A stretch of 50,048 bases of DNA from Girardia tigrina (lineage: Eukaryota). The translations under genes and the position numbers were made by a program. Location of the stretch: NCBI GenBank assembly GCA_001938485.1, contig MQRK01240330.1:1-50048 (forward strand), in the 5' to 3' direction. Below are positions 23,826-43,196 of this stretch, piece by piece. Numbering within the stretch: the stretch's first letter is position 1; every line of letters starts with the position of its first letter. A model generated the notes under the pieces. It searched no databases, was not told where the DNA came from, and worked only from the letters and a program-made list of their open reading frames with translations.

Positions 23826-24255
23826 CCGTGTTTCCCCGAAAGTAAGACAGTGTCTTACTTTCTTTTTATCCCTAAAAGCCCCACTATGTCTTACTTTCGG
23901 GGTATGTTTTATATTGGGAAAAAAATGTCGAATCTTTTGTTTTAACATAAAATTAACATTTATTAACAACCTGAATAGTATTGTATTCACCACAAAACAG
24001 GTTAATAAAAGGAAGTGCCAAGAATGTCTTGCTACAACATTGCATAACATGTAAAACAATGGCACCCCCCCAGGGTGCGGCCCGCACCCCCAGCCCCACT
24101 CTTTGTACCGCACGCCACTGGAGACAAATCCCCCCGTGTTTCCCCGAAAGTAAGACATATGTCTTACTTTCGGGGTACGGCTTATATTAGCTGACCCTTC
24201 TGAAACACCCGATACGTCTTACAATCGGGAGTGTCTTACTATCGGGGAAACACGG
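23826..24255. mobile_element. Tc1/pogo-type MITE
   Basis: ta|ccgtgtttccccgaaagtaagaca...tgtcttactatcggggaaacacgg|ta; the TIR motif recurs internally in both orientations. Confidence 0.9.
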
Positions 24256-29580: not shown

Positions 29581-30635
29581 AGACGGGTGACATTCAGTAT
29601 CAAAACACATTCGATCAATATTAAACAATCGATTACATAGGAAATACAATTTGTTTTGGATTTAATTTCTAAATCAAACTCTTTAACCCCTGCATGATTT
29701 TTTTTATTTTAAAAAAATATATGATATAGGAAAATAGAAATTAAGAGATACGTATTTTTTATTTTTTTTTAAAAAAAGATTTTTTTCATATAGAACATCC
29801 AAACAAACAGTTTTGTCCATGTATGGCAAGCTATACAGTTAGGGTAATAAGATTATGCAAAATTATTTTGGATCATGATCGACAATGTGATAAGGGGTTT
29901 ATGTCTGCGTTCATTTGAATATAAATATAAATAACAAAAACACATATAATTTCAATATTTAATTTACACATAATCAGATTTATTTTCTTGACAAATAAAC
30001 TTCGGCAAATTATTAAATTATATATAAATTAGTCAAACAATAAATCAGAAGAACAAATTTACAACTGTCTTTGACCGACTATAATTAAATAAAGATGACT
30101 TCTTTGATATTTTGTGAGAAAAAAATTTTTCTTTTAATTCAAACATCTCGATTTTGATGATATTAAAATATTTATAAATAATTATTCCGTAAATATTTTG
30201 TAAAAAAATATTAAATAATACTAAAAGTAAAGTAGGGAGTCTGAGGATACATCTAACTAAAACTATTCATATTTTAAAAATATTTTTGTAATATAAATGA
30301 GAACCTCTCCCGAAAGCCTTCTACCAGACTATGCCTTATTTAACACTTACCTCGATAAACTTCTTAACTTTTCCTACACCCATTATCAAAAATTAAAGAA
30401 ACGCGAACATACTCATAGATGAAATACGACTGATTAATTCTAATCCAAGTGACACCAAAAACAATTTTGTACTTTTAGGTTTTATCTACTGTTTAAAATC
30501 AAAACTTTGTCATAGACGATGGTACTGAAATTATACGAAAAGTAGATAAATTTGAAGCGATCTGATCGTGATCCCACCTGAACGCAATTAATTTTAAGTA
30601 AAAGTAAAAAAAAATAAAAAAAATTTTAGTAAAAA

Positions 30636-31310
30636 ATGGATCCTGTATGATAACCGACGTCGATCTGCACAGTGGTTGGACAAAGATGAAGTACCGAAAC
30701 ACTTTCCAAAACCGAAACTAACACCCCGTAAGGTTATGGTGACAGTTTGGNNNNNNNNNNNNNNNNNNNNNNNNNNNNNNNNNNNNNNNNNNNNNNNNNN
30801 TGATGCTGGAATCATCCACTATAGTTTCTTGAATCCAGGTGAAACAATCACAGCGGAGAGGTACTGTCATGAAATTGATGAAATGCATAAGAAATTGAAA
30901 ACCCTTTGTCCGGGATTGTCAATCGAAAAAGTCCCATCCTTCTTCATGATAACCTCATATTTCAAAAGTGACTCTTCAAAGCTTAATGAGTTGGACTATG
31001 AAAGCCTGCTTCATCCACCATATTCACCAGACCTCTCGCCAACGGATGTCTACTTTTTCAGGCATTTGTACAACTTCCTACGTGAAAAAATTTTCAAAAA
31101 CCAAAATGATGCTCAAAATGCCTTCCAAGAATTCGTCACTTCGAGAACCGATGTATTTTATGCTTATGGAATAAAACAACTTGTTTCTCGTTGGCAAAAA
31201 TGTATTGATGCCAACGGTTCATACTTTGATTAATAAACTTTTGTTTCTGTGAATTTTCACGTCTTTGAAGTTTGAGTCCCAAAACCGCCATTGTTTTTCG
31301 ACCAACCTAA
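30636..31310 (+). mobile_element. 5'-truncated mariner element
   Basis: KWILYDN, PKLTPRKVMVTVW, HPPYSPDLSPTD and RWQKCIDANGSYFD*; right TIR ...accaacctaa|ta. Confidence 0.93.
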
Positions 31311-31600
31311 TATATTATATTTTCTTAAAATATTTATTTTTTTTAATAATTTTATTTATTGTTTTTTTCTTGTTTGTTTGTCTATCTTTCGTGAATCACT
31401 GACTTCTCTTTTCCTTTTTTTGTTTTAGTCTTACCTTTTTATCTATATAAAAGATATAAATTTACTTTTTAAAACATAAATATTTTCAATTTATGAAATA
31501 TAGATATGTACTCAATTTTTATTAATTAAACAATATATGCGAGTTAAAATACATAAAATAAATTTTAAAATATATCTTTTAAACATAAATCCTTAATATA

Positions 31601-32759
31601 TTAGGTTGTTCGATATGAAACGGGTCAAACTTCACACCTTACATTTCAATCGCGTATAACTTAACTTTGAACTATCGTATGAAAATAAATAAGGTATTTC
31701 TTGACAGATATNNNNNNNNNNNNNNNNNNNNNNNNNNNNNNNNNNNNNNNNNNNNNNNNNNNNNNNNNNNNNNNNNNNNNNNNNNNNNNNNNNNNNNNNN
31801 NNNNNNNNNNNNNNNNNNNNNNNNNNNNNNNNNNNNNNNNNNNNNNNNNNNNNNNNNNNNNNNNNNNNNNNNNNNNNNNNNNNNNNNNNNNNNNNNNNNN
31901 NNNNNNNNNNNNNNNNNNNNNNNNNNNNNNNNNNNNNNNNNNNNNNNNNNNNNNNNNNNNNNNNNNNNNNNNNNNNNNNNNNNNNNNNNNNNNNNNNNNN
32001 NNNNNNNNNNNNNNNNNNNNNNNNNNNNNNNNNNNNNNNNNNNNNNNNNNNNNNNNNNNNNNNNNNNNNNNNNNNNNNNNNNNNNNNNNNNNNNNNNNNN
32101 NNNNNNNNNNNNNNNNNNNNNNNNNNNNNNNNNNNNNNNNNNNNNNNNNNNNNNNNNNNNNNNNNNNNNNNNNNNNNNNNNNNNNNNNNNNNNNNNNNNN
32201 NNNNNNNNNNNNNNNNNNNNNNNNNNNNNNNNNNNNNNNNNNNNNNNNNNNNNNNNNNNNNNNNNNNNNNNNNNNNNNNNNNNNNNNNNNNNNNNNNNNN
32301 NNNNNNNNNNNNNNNNNNNNNNNNNNNNNNNNNNNNNNNNNNNNNNNNNNNNNNNNNNNNNNNNNNNNNNNNNNNNNNNNNNNNNNNNNNNNNNNNNNNN
32401 NNNNNNNNNNNNNNNNNNNNNNNNNNNNNNNNNNNNNNNNNNNNNNNNNNNNNNNNNNNNNNNNNNNNNNNNNNNNNNNNNNNNNNNNNNNNNNNNNNNN
32501 NNNNNNNNNNNNNNNNNNNNNNNNNNNNNNNNNNNNNNNNNNNNNNNNNNNNNNNNNNNNNNNNNNNNNNNNNNNNNNNNNNNNNNNNNNNNNNNNNNNN
32601 NNNNNNNNNNNNNNNNNNNNNNNNNNNNNNNNNNNNNNNNNNNNNNNNNGTGTTGACAACATGGGGGGATATTTTGATTAAAAATAAAATGTTATTATTT
32701 AAAAAAAATCGATTTACATTTTACTTTAATTTTGACCCGTTTCATATCGAACAACCTAA
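31601..32759 (+). mobile_element. Mariner element, interior mostly an assembly gap
   Basis: Perfect 29-bp TIRs ttaggttgttcgatatgaaacgggtcaaa with TA on both flanks; C-terminus VDNMGGYFD*. Confidence 0.92.
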
Positions 32760-34501
32760 TAACTATGAAAGTATTATAGAAAAATAAAAGTTTTAAAAGA
32801 CAAAACAAATATTCAATTGCATTTAGTACATCGAGTTTTCAAATAGAAGCAGTGCCAAAGAGGAGAGAGTAAGTCAGGCAAATAGCGTGAACATTGCCAA
32901 TGTAAACATAGAATCTGCATCAACGATGTAACAATAGGCGCAACAGTTGATCAAATTGCTTTCTCAAATAAATTTGGAAAGAGACTTCTTAGGAAAATTC
33001 TAGAATATAAATAGAAAAATACATATAATAATTTGCTCGCATCACATATACTACATATAACGATGATATTGTTTGAAGTTAAGGCTTATCATTTGATTGA
33101 TTTACAAATGTATAAGCTTCTTATATTCCAAATTATATTGTTTTTAGTTTTTTTTAATTTTTTCTTACAACAACATGTTTTCTCCGCTTTATCCCAGTCC
33201 CTGCAGGGGGTCATACTTTAAGGTACCGCCTCCTGCAGGGTGGAATTAGAAAGGAACACATGACGATTATATATTTAATAATTATTTATTTAAGATTATT
33301 ATTATTATATTAATTTATATTATATATATAATGTAAGGGTTATTTATTATTTTTAGATGACAGTTCAGACATTTTCAAAACTTTTATTTAATAACAACAA
33401 TATAAAAAATATTCAAACAAGTTTTCCTAATTAAATTTCAGCGGAATGTTTTTTAAATTTTTAGTGCACAAACCAATAAAATTAAAATAATTGTAAATAT
33501 AAATACGCAGATTTATTATTTTCGAAATTTTGTATTATCTTTAATTTTATAAAATTTTTGAATTTAAAAACTATTTTAATTATAAAAATAAACTATTTTC
33601 AAATAGTTTATATATTAACCACGTATTTAATTTTATATATATTTTTAAATATTGTATTTTCTTTTAAATGAATATTTTATTAATTTTCGTCAATTTTAAT
33701 ATTTATTATGATATTTATTTTTCTTATATTGTATTGCATTTACTTTCTAAAACTTTATTAAATTCTGTTTAACTATTCTTAAGATGTTATATTTAATTTG
33801 TTTCCAAACTATTTAATTTACCAAATACTTTAAATTTCATTCGTTTTTAAATCTATTTAATTTAATACTTTTATAAATTTAAAATCTAAACATTTCTGTC
33901 GAAGTTTCGATTGTCACCTAGAATTTACCATCTCGATTTCATCACTAATCACTTTCATTAAATAACCACCGATCGTAGTCCTAAAGAGGACTGCTTCTCG
34001 CTCTCTCATAACTCTTTTCTCGCTCTCATTCATGTTTTATTTCAAAATCTATCAGATTAACTCATCTCAAGTACTTGTCGATGCATTTAATAGCTCAAAA
34101 TATTCGTGCCGGAGAATCACGAAATAAGTGCTTTAATTATGAACAAGATTCTTCTTTTAATTATGAAAATTTTTAAGCAATGAAACCAGATCACTGAACG
34201 AAAGTTAACCTATAGAATCATTAAGAAAAATGTGAATATTTCAAACCAATTAAACTATAGTTAAATCAAATTAAGTATAAAATGATCCAAGATAATTTTT
34301 ATAACGTAATTAAAATAATTAAAAGAAATCAAATCTAAAATGGAAAATATAACAAAAGATATAAACAATATTAGATTAACTACATTCTTTGGTTTGAAAG
34401 CTTTTGTAATCTTCAAAGTAATTACACAAGATAAAAATTAATTAAATTAATCGTAAAACTATTGCTTCGGAAATTATTTACAACTATTTACTCAGATCTC
34501 A

Positions 34502-34573
34502 CGACTCGATTACACATCCGATTCCAAGGACCACCTCATTCGATCCCTTGGATGCGGAGACGAACTATAATCG
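34502..34573 (-). ncRNA. Candidate pre-miRNA-like hairpin A
   Basis: Long imperfect stem with a 9-nt loop; arms nearly identical to hairpin B. Confidence 0.4.
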
Positions 34574-35107
34574 TATTTCCGATCCTCAAAATCTATTGAT
34601 TCCGCATCACAAAATGTATGACATATTTCATAATTAAATTTAGGATCAAAGTCAAAGTAACTAACCAATTAAATAATTAAATTAAAAATAATAAATAAAC
34701 TAAAAGAAGAAATAAGTTACTTTAAGAATAAATTTCCTACTAAAATCAATCAAAACCCCAGTTAAAGTTATTCAAATCGAATCTAACTAGATTATTATTG
34801 CCATCTTTATTATTATTATTATATTATCCATATTAGTATTATTAGCACTCATATTATATGATCAATAAAACAATTAACTAAATCAACTAGACGAAACCGT
34901 TACTTTAATAAAATTAAAAATCCTTAAAATATAAAATTTAAATGATCAATTGAGCAATTAAACTAATATACTAGACAAAATAATGAAGTTAAATCAATTA
35001 TTAAAATATTTAAGCTTTAAATCCAATGGTATCAAAATTATTAAATTAAATAAATTATTACAATTATATACATAGATCTCAGCGATATCCTCTATTTACA
35101 CTACTAC

Positions 35108-35189
35108 GAATACGACCTGGCTACGCATCCGAGTCCAAGGACCAACCCTCTTGATCCCTTGGACGCGGAGACGAACCACAGAAGTATTC
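35108..35189 (-). ncRNA. Candidate pre-miRNA-like hairpin B
   Basis: Minus strand tggttcgtctccgcgtccaagggatc-aagagggtt-ggtccttggactcggatgcgtagcca, plus a basal gaatac/gtattc stem. Confidence 0.45.
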
Positions 35190-35575
35190 CTGCCCACTTG
35201 GGTCGACGACCTCTATACCCATGATGGTTGTAGTCAGTCTCAATAATTGAATTTTCAATGTTAATATATAGACATGGTCAAAAATAAAAGAAGACATTTG
35301 TATATTACAACGTTTAGGAAAATAATCCGATTAAGACCAATTATGCAATAAATTTATTAATAATTTTTATTAATGACAATACAAATTAGAACTCAGAATT
35401 AAATAATGAAGAACTTTTTAAGAAATCCAAAATCAATATCAATGAATAAATAAACGAGAAAAATAAGGAAAATAAACAAAGTCAATAAAAACTATTAACC
35501 CATACCTCTGAAATCAAATATTATCGTAAGTAACTGAAATGTTAAATTACCAATTTATGTCTGATGAAGTTGGTA

Positions 35576-35683
35576 AAATAAATTGTCGAATAAACTGTCG
35601 GATAAAATGTTAAATAATTTGCAAAGTAAGTTGTCAAAAGACGGTTCCAATAATACGTCAAATAAATTATCAAATAAATTTTG
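35576..35683. repeat. Degenerate 12-bp tandem array (9 units, consensus aaataaattgtc)
   Basis: aaataaattgtc gaataaactgtc ggataaaatgtt aaataatttgca aagtaagttgtc aaaagacggttc caataatacgtc aaataaattatc aaataaattttg. Confidence 0.75.
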
Positions 35684-37924
35684 TGTGCTCGTGATCACTG
35701 GTCAAGACTGGCGAAACGACATCGGGTATTTATACCCTACCGTCCTGATGTAGCACCCGACACACTCGGGCATCCACTCTGCATAATCTCGCGAATATTT
35801 ATTCTGTCAGGATTTACAATCGGTCGAAATGCACCGGATGTCGCGTCTGTTTATCGGTTTGCATCTGCAAACTGGTTTTAACTACTTGTGTTATCAGAGG
35901 CTATTCGACGCTTATCAGTCGGTTAACACAGAATGCAGGGGTAGGGCAGTATTTTCAATTGCTAATTTTGAAACTTTTTAATTTCATTTTATGTTATCAG
36001 GAACTGCCATTCCGACTAATGCAATCATTGGAAATCGGATTATTCAATTATAGATTGTGCCGACTGCTATCGAGGTAATTGTTTATTGTTCGTCTCTCTC
36101 ATTCGGACTGTTTATCTTTATTGCTAGCTACGACATCAACAACATCCTACTGTCACGGCGGCTTACCAAATTACCTCGTGGTTGAATCACCATGATTCAT
36201 GGTCTGTAATTTTTAATCAATCTAATTAAAATTTGTTAAATTTCTGTTTTTTTGCTTTCAAAAGGTTTCAAGGGGTTTCAGAAGGTTTCGGGAAGGTTTC
36301 GGAAGAACTCAGGGGAACCCCTCGCCTGCTCTTCGCTCCAACAGGCTCGGGACCGATTTAAAACTAATGAGGCTAGTCGAGTTAGACTATCCTCACAATT
36401 TTCATCTAAACGTCTCGGGCGTACGGGGTGTGGGCTGTGAAGTAGGGTTTCTTTCGAGTTATATGTTCGATAATGTCGCTGTCGTAACAATTATAACTAT
36501 GCCGTAATTAATAGCAATAACGACGTAATAGATCGAAAAACACTGTATTTGGAAAAAAAGTCGATATTGGTGAAAAGTTCGTATATGTAAAAATAGTCGT
36601 ACGTGAATTAATTTTTTTTGATGGAGGAAAAAGTCGTTTTGCTAACATCGGGGTTGAGATTTATCAGAAATTTGCTTTATTGTTAGAATTTCGATTTTGT
36701 ATCGAAATGTGAAGGGTGAATTTTTGAAACTGTGAATTCTGATAGATATCTGTTTGCGTTGGGGTATTTAGAAAAATATCCAAGGGGATAAAGATTTGTG
36801 GTGTATTTTAAAAATAAAACTTTCCACAATAACTATTTGTTCGATTCTAAAAAATATGATCATAAAAGCCATCAATGAGATTTTGTTTTTGGTAGAAAAA
36901 GTTAATTCATCCAAAAAGTTTAATTGTAGTATAAACAAATCCGATTTCAATAATTTGACATTTAAGGAGTATTCAGGTGGCGCTGATTTTAATGGAGAAC
37001 TATTCACGATTCAAACCCGTTTACTCGTGTTCGATTAGCTTGAAGGAGCTTAAAGGGAAAATAGGAAGACCATCAAAGCTCAATATATTAAAGTCGAAAG
37101 GCAATTTATAATTTGATTGTAAAACTCGGGAACACAGTCTACCTTCGGGAAACAAATTTCATAATTTTTCTACCTTCCAGACATTCCCAAGTTGGGAGTC
37201 CCAACCAACGCCACCTTGTCGCCACTGTACAACTACAAACACCTTACTAACAGTTACATCTAAACTTTGAAAGATTATAATATAATGAACACCATCAAAA
37301 GTATACCTAGTTCATGTTAAGAGATGCTACCTTCATGTAAGAACTATGTCTAACTAAAATTATGATTTTGATGTGTTCAATTGGTAGTAACACCCAGAAG
37401 TCAAAAATGCGTCAAGTGTATGTTAAGATATACTAAACCGTGCAATATTCCTTAACTTAATATGTATGGAATCAACTGACATCAATGAAATCCTTTCATC
37501 ACAATAGGAAATAACCAATAATGATATAATAGAATTTTACCTGGTCAATATCATTTGAAGAAAGGGTTCTAACAGATATTCAAGAGAAAAAAAATTAACA
37601 GCAACAAGGATTAGTGAATGCTTGAGTTTCATTGGCGTTGTAAATGACATTTTTAGAGAAGTCAATCACGATATTGAAAGGAGTTCAAAAATTGCCAACT
37701 TAAGTTCATACAATAAAATTTATTACAAAAACAAATCAGTCCAGCCAAATCAAAAAGTTACTGAAACAGAACCAGAAGACAGAAATTCTGAATTTATCAT
37801 CTGATTCTGAATAATAAATTACTTTTGTACAAATTAAATTTTAAATTAATGCTATTTTTTGTTTATTTTATTTTTATCATATTAATATGAAATTAATAAA
37901 CGCCATTTAAAAATATATTTTTGG

Positions 37925-37962
37925 ATAATATATTTCGACGGTTTAACCGTCATCATCAAGAT
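37925..37962 (-). ncRNA. Hammerhead motif variant belonging to the 41.4-43.1 kb Penelope element
   Basis: Minus strand TTGATGA-t-gacgg-ttaaa-ccgtc-GAAA-tata-tt; about 60 nt from the P-element TSD. Confidence 0.6.
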
Positions 37963-38020
37963 CACTGATTATGTTCTTTTTTATTGCTTTTATATAAGAA
38001 ATGAATGATTATGCAATCAC

Positions 38021-41000
38021 CATGGACCCCTGTATAATAGCATCTGGACTAACAACCACTTCAAATATTTTTTCGCTTTAGACAACATGAGGCCTATAGA
38101 TATGAAGCATATAAATACGTTTTCAACTACTTGTTCAATCTCATATTTAAAAGTACAAACAGATGTGTGTGTTATCATTCTTGAGTGAGTCATTCTCATT
38201 GAAAACCTCTGTGTGTGTATGTGTGTGAACTATGATATGATGAATCAGTCTAGAGTCCTCAGGTATAAGGGTCGGTGCGTGAGGCCTCTTCTCATTTGTT
38301 GATGGAAATTGTACGAAAAAGCCTCATTGTTTTCTCTCATTTTCACATCACATGGGTTTTAAGTGTGCAGCTCCTGGCTGTAAAACAGGTTNNNNNNNNN
38401 NNNNNNNNNNNNNNNNNNNNNNNNNNNNNNNNNNNNNNNNNNNNNNNNNNNNNNNNNNNNNNNNNNNNNNNNNNNNNNNNNNNNNNNNNNNNNNNNNNNN
38501 NNNNNNNNNNNNNNNNNNNNNNNNNNNNNNNNNNNNNNNNNNNNNNNNNNNNNNNNNNNNNNNNNNNNNNNNNTACAAATTCTGATCGGAAGAATAAAAG
38601 ACCAAGAAAGTTATTGAAAAGGTAAGTTATTTCTTTGTAAAATACCTTTTCTATTACTGTGTTCATTGTTATTGAATGATTGCTGTTTTAGATATTTGAA
38701 AGATGATTCGTTTCCATCCAAGTTCCCTGATCTTCCATCGTATTATACATCACAATTGCCTCCCTGCCGACAGTCAAACTCAACGTTTGAGGAGAGATAT
38801 TTACGTGAAGTGCAGAGTAATGATGATGTCTATCAGGAATTCGTGAATAACGACAAAATCCATTCCCTTGAAGAGCTCCACAGGAAATTAATGGAAGAGC
38901 AACATCAAATATGATTCCTCCTTGCTACTCTGCATCATTTCGAGCGTGGAGGATATTCCTAAAATTGATGCTTCAATCCAAGTGCAAAATGATCGATCAG
39001 TGTCAGTGGTTATTTACTCTGCTTCTGTTCCATTTTCTCGATATCAACATTTATTATCTAAGAGAAAACTTGTATATTTCAGCCAAGTTCTGAACCTCAT
39101 GTCTCTTATTAATTCATGGTTGAGTGACAATCCTTCCTCAAATACCAACTGTCATTGGGTCGATATAGCCATTCAATGCTTGCTGAGGCAGTGTGAGAAT
39201 GTTCCCGATTCCTCTGACAACATTGAAGGAGAAACCAATCTTCGTCAACTTGAATTTCAAATCGAGCAGCTGAGACTTTTACAATCCAGCAAACATGCCC
39301 GCCGATACTCTCCCGCTATCATTGTTTTGTCCTACACTTTATTTTCAACGAGTTCATCGTGCTACAGTGTTTTGCTTCATCAGAATATCTTGTGTCTTCC
39401 TTCCATCAATACTCTCCGAAAATTATCTCAAGGAGTTGAAATGAAGAGCGGTGAATCCAATAAGCTATACTTTCAAAGGAGACTCGCCACATTGAATGAA
39501 CAACAGCGGTATGTTACTCTCATTATTGACGAGATTTACATAGCCAGCAAGTTAGAATATTGCGGTGGAAAATTCGTTGGCTTCANNNNNNNNNNNNNNN
39601 NNNNNNNNNNNNNNNNNNTCAGTTTCATGATTTCATCAATAGCTGGTGACTACAGAGATATCGTATCCCTGTTTCCTGTCAGAAAATTGAACACTGATTT
39701 CCTTCATGAAAAATTCCTATCCACAATGCAATTTATTTATTCCATTGGATTCCGAGTTCTCATTGTTTGTGTGGATAATTATTCTGTTAATCGTGCCTTT
39801 TACATCAACAAACTCTGCAATGATACTCTTCAGTCATCCATACCCAATCCATGTGATCCTGATTCTCCTCTATATTTGACTTTTGACACTACCCACAATG
39901 TAAAAAATATTTACAACAATTTCCAATCTAAGAAAGTTTTTGTGTGTCCTCCGTTTTCTCCACAATCATCATCGTTCACTGCCAACTTTCAACATATCGA
40001 AGAGCTCTATTATCTTGAAAGAGACAAATCCGTTAAAATTGCCCATAAATTACGTGCAGCATCTCTGAATCCAACCAACCTTCAGAGGACATCCGTCAAA
40101 CATTCTGCCAGTGTTTTTTGTGAATCAACGGCTCAAGGACTCTCNNNNNNNNNNNNNNNNNNNNNNNNNNNNNNNNGTGGTACTGCCGAATTCCTGCAAA
40201 CGATCATCAAGTATTGGAGCATTCTGAATGTAAGAACACCCTTCATCGGAAAACACAAGCGGGATTTGTATCGTGATCCTATTCGCTCCTCGGCTGATTG
40301 GAAGGCTCCTTTATCTAACTGAATTCCTGGAATTTCTGAGAAAGTGGCAATTCTCACAACAACCATGTTTAACTAAACAGACTTTTACGACTGTTGCACA
40401 CTCCACGCAAGGCTAATCCACGTTGTTCAATATCTACTGGACAGACTCGGCTTCAATTACGTCCTGCCTGGTTCCATTCAATCAGATCCTTTAGAAGAAA
40501 GGATTGGCTGGTACAGAAAGCTCGCTGGTGGTAATTATTATCTGTCCTTGCGCCAGGTTTTGGAGACAGAGAGAAAAATAAAAATGCTGTCTCTTTTGAA
40601 ATTCTGTGGATTGCTTGATAGTCATGTCGCTGAGGGAGACGAACAACCATTCGGAAATGCTGCCACTGTGCAACAAATTGTATCCTCTCTGACATTTGAC
40701 ACAGCACCGTCCTATTCAGACGCCTGTGCTCTATTCTATATATTACAAAAACCATTCTTCACAGACGTGAATGCAGCAGCTGTGAGCAGTTGCTGAAAAG
40801 TAATAACTCTGTCAACCACGAGCTGGAATCTGATGAATTGTCAGAGAATACTTCTGATTTGTTGACATCACTTAACAGAGGAGGTCTCACCTATCCTTCG
40901 GACTATCTGTTTCTCCTCTGTATCAAATGTTGGAATGTTTTCTCTGAAATAAAACAGAAAACAAACCTGACAAAAATGCTTCTTCATTCTTCTTCCAGTC

Positions 41001-41436
41001 GCTCTATGTTCACGGAAATTATGAAACTGGTGCTAGAAAACTACACTGAAATATATTTTCTCGGCTGCGAAAATGGTCACGATCTTCTGTCACAGATTTC
41101 ACGCAGTATGTTCAACATCATGGCAAAAAATACAGTAGCAGACACCAATTCAACATCTGCATGCTCCTCAAATTTGAGAAAAGTTATTAAATTCAATTCC
41201 TAATATGTATAATAATTGTACCTAATTATTGTAATTTGTTCTGTATAGTGTATATAATATTTTATTTGTGATTACAAATCACTGTCTGCATTGGTGATTT
41301 GGTGGAAAATTTGACTTTCATTGAGGAAGACAAGATTATATATTTGGCACATATATTGTCATTACAGAGCGTAGGCCTCAGTTGTCTAACACGATATTCA
41401 GTTGTTAGTCCAGATGCTATTATACAGGGGTCCATG
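38021..41436 (+). mobile_element. Full-length P-element-superfamily (THAP) DNA transposon
   Basis: Perfect 36-bp TIRs catggacccctgtataatagcatctggactaacaac; exact 8-bp TSD gcaatcac (38013-38020, 41437-41444). Confidence 0.95.
38352..41203 (+). pseudogene. THAP-domain P-element transposase, frameshifted
   Basis: THAP start MGFKCAAPGC; intron 38622-38691 (gtaagt...tttag) joins to YLKDDSFPSKF; catalytic motifs LIIDEIYI, VCVDN, FDTTHNVKN and QSDPLEE. Frame breaks near 38915, 40310-40420 and 40745. Confidence 0.88.
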
Positions 41437-41444
41437 GCAATCAC

Positions 41445-43115
41445 TTACGTAAGTCCAATCGAAAACTCTTAACAAATTAGTTGAGAGTGCTGTTTGAACA
41501 TTGATTTTAGGATCGCATGATCTTATCAACAATGTTTCACATGACACTCTCTCCCAATAATTTTTAAAATACTTGCACAAAATCTAAAAATCATTTATAT
41601 TACATTTACACGTTTTTTATGCTCAGTAACATTACTCTTTCCCCCTTTTTGACTGTGTTCTTGGACTCGTTTGCAGAGATGACGGGCAGTCTCTCCGATG
41701 TATGTGGCATTGTACCCATTACATGTGTATTGATAAACAATGTCCGAACACAATCCTAAAGGATTATGTGATTTATTGCAAAACATATTCTCAACTTTAA
41801 ATGATTGAGAAATAATTTTTAAATTTAAAATGTTATCTGTTGATTTCAAGATCGAATTCCTGAGGTGTTTAAAACCCTCGGAGTAAGGTAAGCTTAGAGT
41901 ATACCCAGGTGTAAAGCAGTTTTCAATGTTTAAACTATTAATTTTTTCATTTTTGATTTTTTCTTTTTCGATTATTTTATCTACAGTCTCACGAGTGAGT
42001 CTGTCTATGATGGACTTAGAGTAACCGTTATTATTCAATAACTTGCTCAATGTATCAATACTTTTAATAGATTTTGAAAACGTGGAAGAAAGAGACCAAA
42101 AGCGGTATAACAAACCTTTGATCATATTCCTTTTATATTTAAACTCACAAAAACTGTTTATGGAGGTGTACAAACCAGTATCAGTTTTTTTTCGATATAT
42201 TTCAGTTTCATAATGATCATTTTTCCTTTCAATTAACAAATCAAGGAATGGTAATTTTCCGGTTATTTCCTGTTCTACTGTAAAGATTATATTAGGATGA
42301 ATCGAATTCATGTAATCTAGAAAAGGAAACACATGTTCTCGAGATTCAAAGACTAGAAAGATATCATCCACATATCTCTTATAAAGTAGTGGTTTTTTCC
42401 CCAAAAACAGTTCTAATTTTTCTTCAATGGAAGAAAGAAATATAGAGGCTAACGTCGGAGCCAATGGTGAACCCATCTATTTGTTTGTACCATTCACCAT
42501 TAAATAGAAAATGGACATTTGAAGTAGCAAATGTTAAGAGTTTCTCGAAAAGCAACTTCATCTAAATCAGAATTGTCCAGATTATTCTTACGCCAAAGTT
42601 CACAACATAATTCGATGGTTTCCTGTAACGGAACATTAGTAAATAGACTCGATACATCAAAGGAAACCATAAAATCATTTTCAGTTCGTATTTCAAAATT
42701 AGCAATGGAATTCACAAACTCAAAACTGTCCTTACAAATAAAATCATTAGGAATGAAATATTTTATCTTCGTATCTAGATATTTAGCAATATTGTACTGA
42801 GATGTACGGATCATAGATAAAACCCGTCGCATTGGAACTCCATCTTTATGTACTTTAGGAAGACCGTATAATTTTGCTGGTTGAGAACCAGACACATGAA
42901 GTAAGTCAATAACATCCTTCGTAATGTGTCTTAAAAGGTTTTTTAACAACGAGAACAAGTATTCTTCATCTTTCATTGGAGGTAATTTTCCATTTTTTCT
43001 AAATTTATCAATTTTAAGAAATTGTGGGCAATTTAAAACATTATTCATTTTATTTATGTATTCTAAATTATCCAAGATAAAAAATCCATTACCTTTATCA
43101 AATTTACTAACTCTG
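41445..43115 (-). mobile_element. Penelope-like retroelement (RT + GIY-YIG), 5'-truncated and frameshifted
   Basis: ORFs 42500..43075 and 41595..42476: LYGLPKVHK, SFDVSSLFTNVP, MGSPLAP, RYVDDIF, LPFLD, VYQYTC...YIGET. Confidence 0.95.
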
Positions 43116-43196
43116 ATATCTTTTTTTTATTATTCAATTCATTGTTATTTTTATTTTTATTATTCTTATTTTTACTATTATCATTATTATCTATAT

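Follow-up and report, generated by a model that had tools for sequence, protein, structure and literature searches.

Setting and layout of the two hairpins

The window (the whole stretch of 50,048 nucleotides that was analyzed) contains a three-exon Nkx6 homeobox gene on the minus strand (~15901-10938) and is dense in transposon remnants. For the Nkx6 homeobox exon, the six best BLASTP matches among 121 stored proteins were all from parasitic flatworms, which makes a flatworm the probable host; exon 1 was strongly diverged, with one relative (80% identical) among 1.84 billion representatives. Two long inverted repeats derived from one sequence of ~16-38 nt (23826-24176) are likely transposon termini. 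A mariner transposase remnant was located at 30598-31233, and a separate pair of 34-bp inverted repeats (97% identity) lies around an assembly gap at 31599-32761. Broken transposase-like frames on the plus strand (38892-41203), whose resemblance we take to be P-element/THAP-like, had no Pfam hit in either of the two pieces that were scanned; on the minus strand (41595-43126), a reverse-transcriptase element, also broken, gave a weak RVT_1 hit.

Two hairpins, A and B, were located on the same strand at a distance of 611 bp, in agreement with the original prediction of ~610 bp:

35108-35190, minus strand: hairpin A, 33-pair imperfect stem with a basal segment, pri-miRNA-like, from its fold
34497-34579, minus strand: hairpin B, paralogous to A, with a weaker fold and a higher AT content, 29 pairs in the register of A
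34586-35100, no strand: spacer, AT-rich (20% GC), with minus-strand skews toward G and T (+0.32 and +0.16)

The 62-nt cores had a GC content of 60% (A) and 50% (B), versus 20% between the two hairpins and 20-26% in the DNA around them, as expected of the GC-rich islands in AT-rich DNA that had been described. Both arm consensus strings and the divergent 9-nt loops (aagagggtt vs. gaatgaggt) were recovered as predicted, and the arms were near-identical. Over the 62-nt cores, 49 of 62 bases were identical, and at 9 of the 13 differing positions A has G/C where B has A/T. A 55-nt core matched at 47/55 bases (BLAST E ~1e-11). A 24-nt pattern for the 5' arm, allowing up to 3 mismatches, matched the window twice, a count reached in 0 of 100 shuffles.

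Homology between A and B stops close to the stem base. At the 611-bp offset, no flank homology was detectable (seven blocks, z = -1.3 to 2.2 against shuffles, compared with 13 for the core), and the local alignment scores of the flanks were all under that of the best shuffle. Tandem duplication of a 611-bp unit followed by neutral drift was rejected, as the flanks are not homologous. A covariance model of the pair, run on the window with filters off, recovered no third copy; besides A and B, it listed only their reverse complements and hits with E of at least 3. A and B are duplicated copies of one element of ~80 nt, whose limits are approximately those of the stem.

Other GC- or CpG-rich features lie nearby. 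A third GC-rich hairpin, unrelated to A and B, is located ~1.25 kb beyond B (33179-33246; z = -4.4 plus, -4.8 minus); it passed a pre-miRNA screen on both strands with no strand bias, and may be a DNA palindrome or a transposon remnant. A CpG-rich patch at 33900-34260, with an 8-bp hairpin (~33976-33995) followed by CT-rich repeats, is promoter-like or transposon-end-like. Upstream of A on the minus strand, a CpG- and hairpin-rich island (35560-36760, 38% GC) holds a 12-nt minisatellite (35573-35678), a decamer repeat (~36262-36302), an X-box-like site (36475) and a TATA-like octamer within a palindrome (35737-35724). The island may be a decayed repeat or a promoter.

Folding, strand and divergence between the copies

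Folding of both strands against shuffles, the check proposed with the original prediction, gave a significant result for A and a non-significant one for B. On the minus strand, A (35105-35190) had a minimum free energy (MFE) of -42.4 kcal/mol (z = -5.49, equaled by none of 200 shuffles), and its plus strand had -30.9 kcal/mol (z = -5.35). For B (34494-34579), the minus strand had -24.3 kcal/mol (z = -1.36, 16/200 shuffles as good), its core gave z = -1.17 (28/200 as good), and the plus strand had -20.4 kcal/mol (z = -2.08). A was the lowest-energy 90-nt window in a scan of both strands. In the pre-miRNA screen of the 50 kb, 44 strand-wise hairpins passed (20 plus, 24 minus); A was first by energy among them and B failed on both strands. 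Hairpin shape is thus common in this DNA. A stands out from this background, and B is persuasive only through its paralogy to A.

An imperfect stem of ~30 bp with a basal segment had been predicted for each copy. This held for A, with its 33 pairs; for B, the stem was present only in the register of A (29 pairs, vs. 30 in A over columns 5-40) and was absent from the minimum-energy fold of B, which had fewer arm pairs. Compared with B, 19 of the 33 pairs of A were unchanged and 14 altered; 8 of these changed on one side and stayed paired, all via G·U, and 6 were broken. There were no compensatory pair changes among the 33. Bulges and C·U mismatches were common to both copies, indicating that the arms were already imperfect before duplication. 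Both copies formed an unbranched hairpin with a loop of 11 nt (at least 8 nt being expected) and basal pairs, and the basal stem reached ~12-15 nt, or approximately one helical turn, below the predicted cut, close to the single helical turn given in PMC10954719.

The minus strand is preferred, not proven. The consensus fold of A and B had 26 pairs on the minus strand and 11 on the plus strand, and the minus strand showed 10 columns with a G·U in at least one copy against 1 A·C column (P = 0.006, unweighted, at even odds). This excess weakened to P = 0.07 after weighting for local strand skew, with the strand chosen after the fact. On the minus strand, G and T are also enriched in the DNA around the hairpins; this skew, whose source could be minus-strand transcription, confounds the G·U strand test. 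The minus-strand preference of the original prediction held for energy, pair count and G·U columns, but A had a near-equal z on the plus strand.

Canonical microRNAs are recognized by both arms being present as precise reads of 20-26 nt with homogeneous 5' ends, by 2-nt 3' offsets at the Drosha and Dicer cuts, and by arms that pair with each other at 16 bases or more. Predicted duplexes of 22 nt with 2-nt 3' overhangs were assumed on the fold of A, giving precursors of 55 nt with a GC content of 60% (A) and 51% (B). Segment limits were taken from the fold of A and not from the match between A and B, and the register was chosen by the analyst.

35153-35174, minus strand: predicted 5p arm of A, 22 nt, first base U, seed CGUCUCC, the probable guide; ends placed from the fold; 19/22 paired
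35142-35152, minus strand: predicted inter-arm loop of A, 11 nt
35120-35141, minus strand: predicted 3p arm of A and probable star strand, 22 nt, seed CCUUGGA
34542-34563, minus strand: predicted 5p arm of B, seed of A kept, position 11 differing; 18/22 paired
34531-34541, minus strand: predicted inter-arm loop of B, 11 nt
34509-34530, minus strand: predicted 3p arm of B, seed identical to that of the 3p arm of A

In this shared register, arm pairing on the minus strand was 19/22 in A and 18/22 in B, above the threshold of 16. Both predicted arms begin with U in both copies, the 5p and 3p seeds are identical between copies, and a mismatch at 5p position 10 (the mid-stem motif) occurs in both. 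Seed-match sites elsewhere in the window numbered 2 for 5p and 1 for 3p, about chance level by a rough hand estimate.

Differences between the copies were distributed unevenly. The predicted 5p arms were identical at 21 of 22 positions (position 11 differing) and the 3p arms differed at 4 of 22, including position 9 but none within positions 1-8; the predicted loops differed at 5 of 11 positions, and 8 of the 21 positions in the basal strands were changed. The arms (5/44) therefore carried proportionally fewer differences than loop and basal stem combined (13/32; Fisher P = 0.005) and than the loop alone (5/11; P = 0.019). In PMC2677885, arms more conserved than the loop are the divergence profile of pre-miRNAs, and a strict rule allows changes in one arm only. 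Here the arms were the more conserved part, and both of them carried differences, contrary to the strict form of at most one arm.

Known families and processing motifs

The original prediction had not recognized the arms as any known family, and the Rfam comparison agreed with it: no hit in the window reached the gathering threshold of Rfam 15, and sub-threshold hits (33000-36500; 34440-35260) had E above 2 only, with no miRNA family up to E 10. Viral collections gave no matches. A tRNA identity was rejected, none being found on sequence; readings as SECIS or B-box were rejected by eye against the consensus sequences. The hammerhead core motif consists of CUGANGA and GAAA, and the sole pattern match in 32650-38390 was at 35536, in AT-rich DNA outside both hairpins. 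An exact 21-nt match to a metagenome contig was attributed to chance (it lies inside a prokaryotic coding gene and has no second arm), and a crab miRNA was set aside as it shares only 9 nt.

No row of the list of 36 Dugesia japonica loci (PMC7722302, supplementary file 8) matched either arm. The searched parts of the supplements of PMC7722302, PMC3840308, PMC3245920 and PMC11701709 likewise held no arm match, file 8 of PMC7722302 being the only one known to hold miRNA sequences. The arm strings retrieved no relevant paper in a search of full-text literature; a planarian family already named in miRBase or MirGeneDB could exist. Full-text searches for the seed with Schmidtea, and for CNNC and microRNA with Schmidtea, found no paper.

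A and B resemble duplicated animal pre-miRNAs in their build, which makes them candidate members of that class. The MirGeneDB averages (PMC11701709) are arms of 22 nt with 19 ± 1.6 pairs. Canonical animal pre-miRNAs as described there (MirGeneDB 3.0) share with A and B the 22-nt arms, a loop above 8 nt, 18-19 pairs, U at position 1, the mismatch at 5p position 10, the basal stem and the clustering of paralogs with one seed; unlike them, A and B have no CNNC, basal UG or apical UGU, and have G, not U, at 5p position 9. A and B also differ in having no Rfam family match.

On the minus strand, CNNC at +14 to +19 was absent from both A and B for registers -2 to +2, basal UG was found in neither, and apical UGU occurred in neither predicted loop. 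According to PMC11701709 and PMC10954719, these three motifs are supportive and optional. Chance level for CNNC in this window was 8%. In the D. japonica list (a partial list of 36 rows with one duplicate, from a genus that may not be that of the host), 31/36 precursor rows had CNNC at +15 to +17 by eye (PMC7722302, supplementary file 8), as had 3 of the 4 novel precursors, also by eye; the 5 rows with no visible CNNC included some that were shortened or ended in N. The D. japonica CNNC was often CAUC or CUUC. The D. japonica loci are similar to A and B in precursor size, come from a probably related host and include four species-restricted loci; their rows look AT-rich by eye, in contrast to the GC content of A and B. 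If the host resembles Dugesia, the missing CNNC perhaps counts four- to six-fold against a canonical miRNA. On the opposite strand, CNNC was present at both hairpins:

35194-35197, plus strand: CNNC, at +16 after A if A is read on the plus strand
34584-34587, plus strand: CNNC, at +17 after B if B is read on the plus strand

A candidate microRNA pair and its alternatives

The leading hypothesis is that A and B are a canonical, lineage-restricted microRNA pair on the minus strand, to which we assign a probability of roughly 0.5. It is favored by the divergence profile, the stem geometry, the identical seeds and the G·U bias, and on these points the tandem miRNA pair of the original prediction stands as a hypothesis; the weak fold of B, the lack of compensatory pairs and the missing minus-strand CNNC count against it.

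The G·U bias is of an RNA type, and it would also suit a structured minus-strand RNA outside the canonical Microprocessor substrates. Such an RNA might be cut by Dicer independently of Drosha, might be a hairpin of the endo-siRNA type, or might form a stem bound by protein within a longer RNA, either non-coding or from a mobile element. The absence of all three motifs from the minus strand and the high GC of the hairpins are in keeping with such an RNA. Loops are more often preserved in other structured RNAs, which also tend to have compensatory pairs; no such pair was seen here, and a conserved stem below a free loop is what a miRNA shows. No Rfam family was near threshold, and neither a hammerhead core at the hairpins nor a tRNA was found. 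Non-miRNA Drosha substrates without the three motifs are described in PMC10954719. We consider this explanation unlikely. The hairpins could also be inverted repeats at the DNA level, belonging to a high-copy element: a tiny MITE-like one, or a repeat or cargo sequence inside a transposon. The transposon-rich setting (mariner and reverse-transcriptase hits, many self-repeats), homology that ends at the stem base as in an inserted element, TA near 3 of the 4 stem ends and the decay-like drift of B's core toward A/T point this way. MITEs do give miRNA-like hairpins, as with hsa-mir-548 from Made1 (PMC1784062). Made1, at 80 bp, is like A and B in its size of ~80 nt, its two inverted arms, its short spacer and its homology up to the stem base; A and B are unlike it in having imperfect arms with shared bulges and wobble pairs and no clear target-site duplication. 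The best flanking repeats were of 7 nt (A) and 5 nt (B), which is no convincing target-site duplication, and no transposon end matching A or B was found in the window. Divergence was uneven and not uniform (the P = 0.005 contrast given above), the shared bulges and C·U mismatches place the imperfection of the arms before duplication, and only 2 copies were found within the window; folded as DNA, the two strands gave similar and weak structures, which counts against the repeat. Overall, an origin as a mobile-element repeat appears improbable.

Two further explanations receive little weight. The first, a plus-strand miRNA pair in which B would precede A, or a pair read from both strands, draws on the CNNC at +16 (A) and +17 (B) past the plus-strand 3' arm, each with a chance of 8-19%, and on the plus-strand fold of A (z of -5.35, 17/22 paired). 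It is opposed by the pairing of B (only 15/22), by the 10 G·U columns that become A·C mismatches, by a consensus fold of 11 pairs against 26, and by plus-strand 5p seeds that differ between A and B in a register picked among several; we regard it as very unlikely. The second, a regulatory module of the DNA present in two copies, perhaps an enhancer of the Nkx6 gene ~19 kb away, with palindromic factor sites that mimic a hairpin, would fit a window with a developmental homeobox gene, and two conserved GC-rich blocks around a free spacer could be binding sites. Such a module predicts no 30-pair stem, basal stem or one-strand G·U bias, and we hold it to be highly improbable.

If A and B are the canonical microRNA pair, one Pol II transcript on the minus strand would run through A and then B, and the Microprocessor would cut ~11-13 nt above the basal junction to give the 55-nt precursors, from which Dicer would then free the 22-nt duplexes. 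The 5p arm (21/22 identical, U1, seed CGUCUCC, position-10 mismatch) would be the Argonaute guide from both copies, and the guides from A and B would repress a shared set of targets. Of the two hairpins, A would be processed better, and B may be a poor substrate or in decay. The target site of the seed contains a CpG and would be expected to be uncommon in AT-rich 3' UTRs. A further possibility, which we rate as quite improbable, is a planarian small-RNA locus that escapes the CNNC rule of most listed Dugesia miRNAs, either as a GC-rich pair without the usual Microprocessor signals or by processing of both strands (a wobble-rich stem on the minus strand, CNNC on the plus strand); with both strands processed, the core, being palindromic, would yield CCUUGGA as the 3p seed from either strand.

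Confirmation of the canonical pair would provide a lineage-restricted family of two miRNA genes whose seed contains a CpG, and annotation for a group relevant to regeneration, in which miRNA lists for species other than Schmidtea mediterranea are short (36 loci in that of D. japonica). This would be useful annotation and no new principle. As CNNC appears near-universal by eye in the listed D. japonica precursors, a GC-rich pair that is processed without it would test how strict the dependence of the planarian Microprocessor on that motif is.
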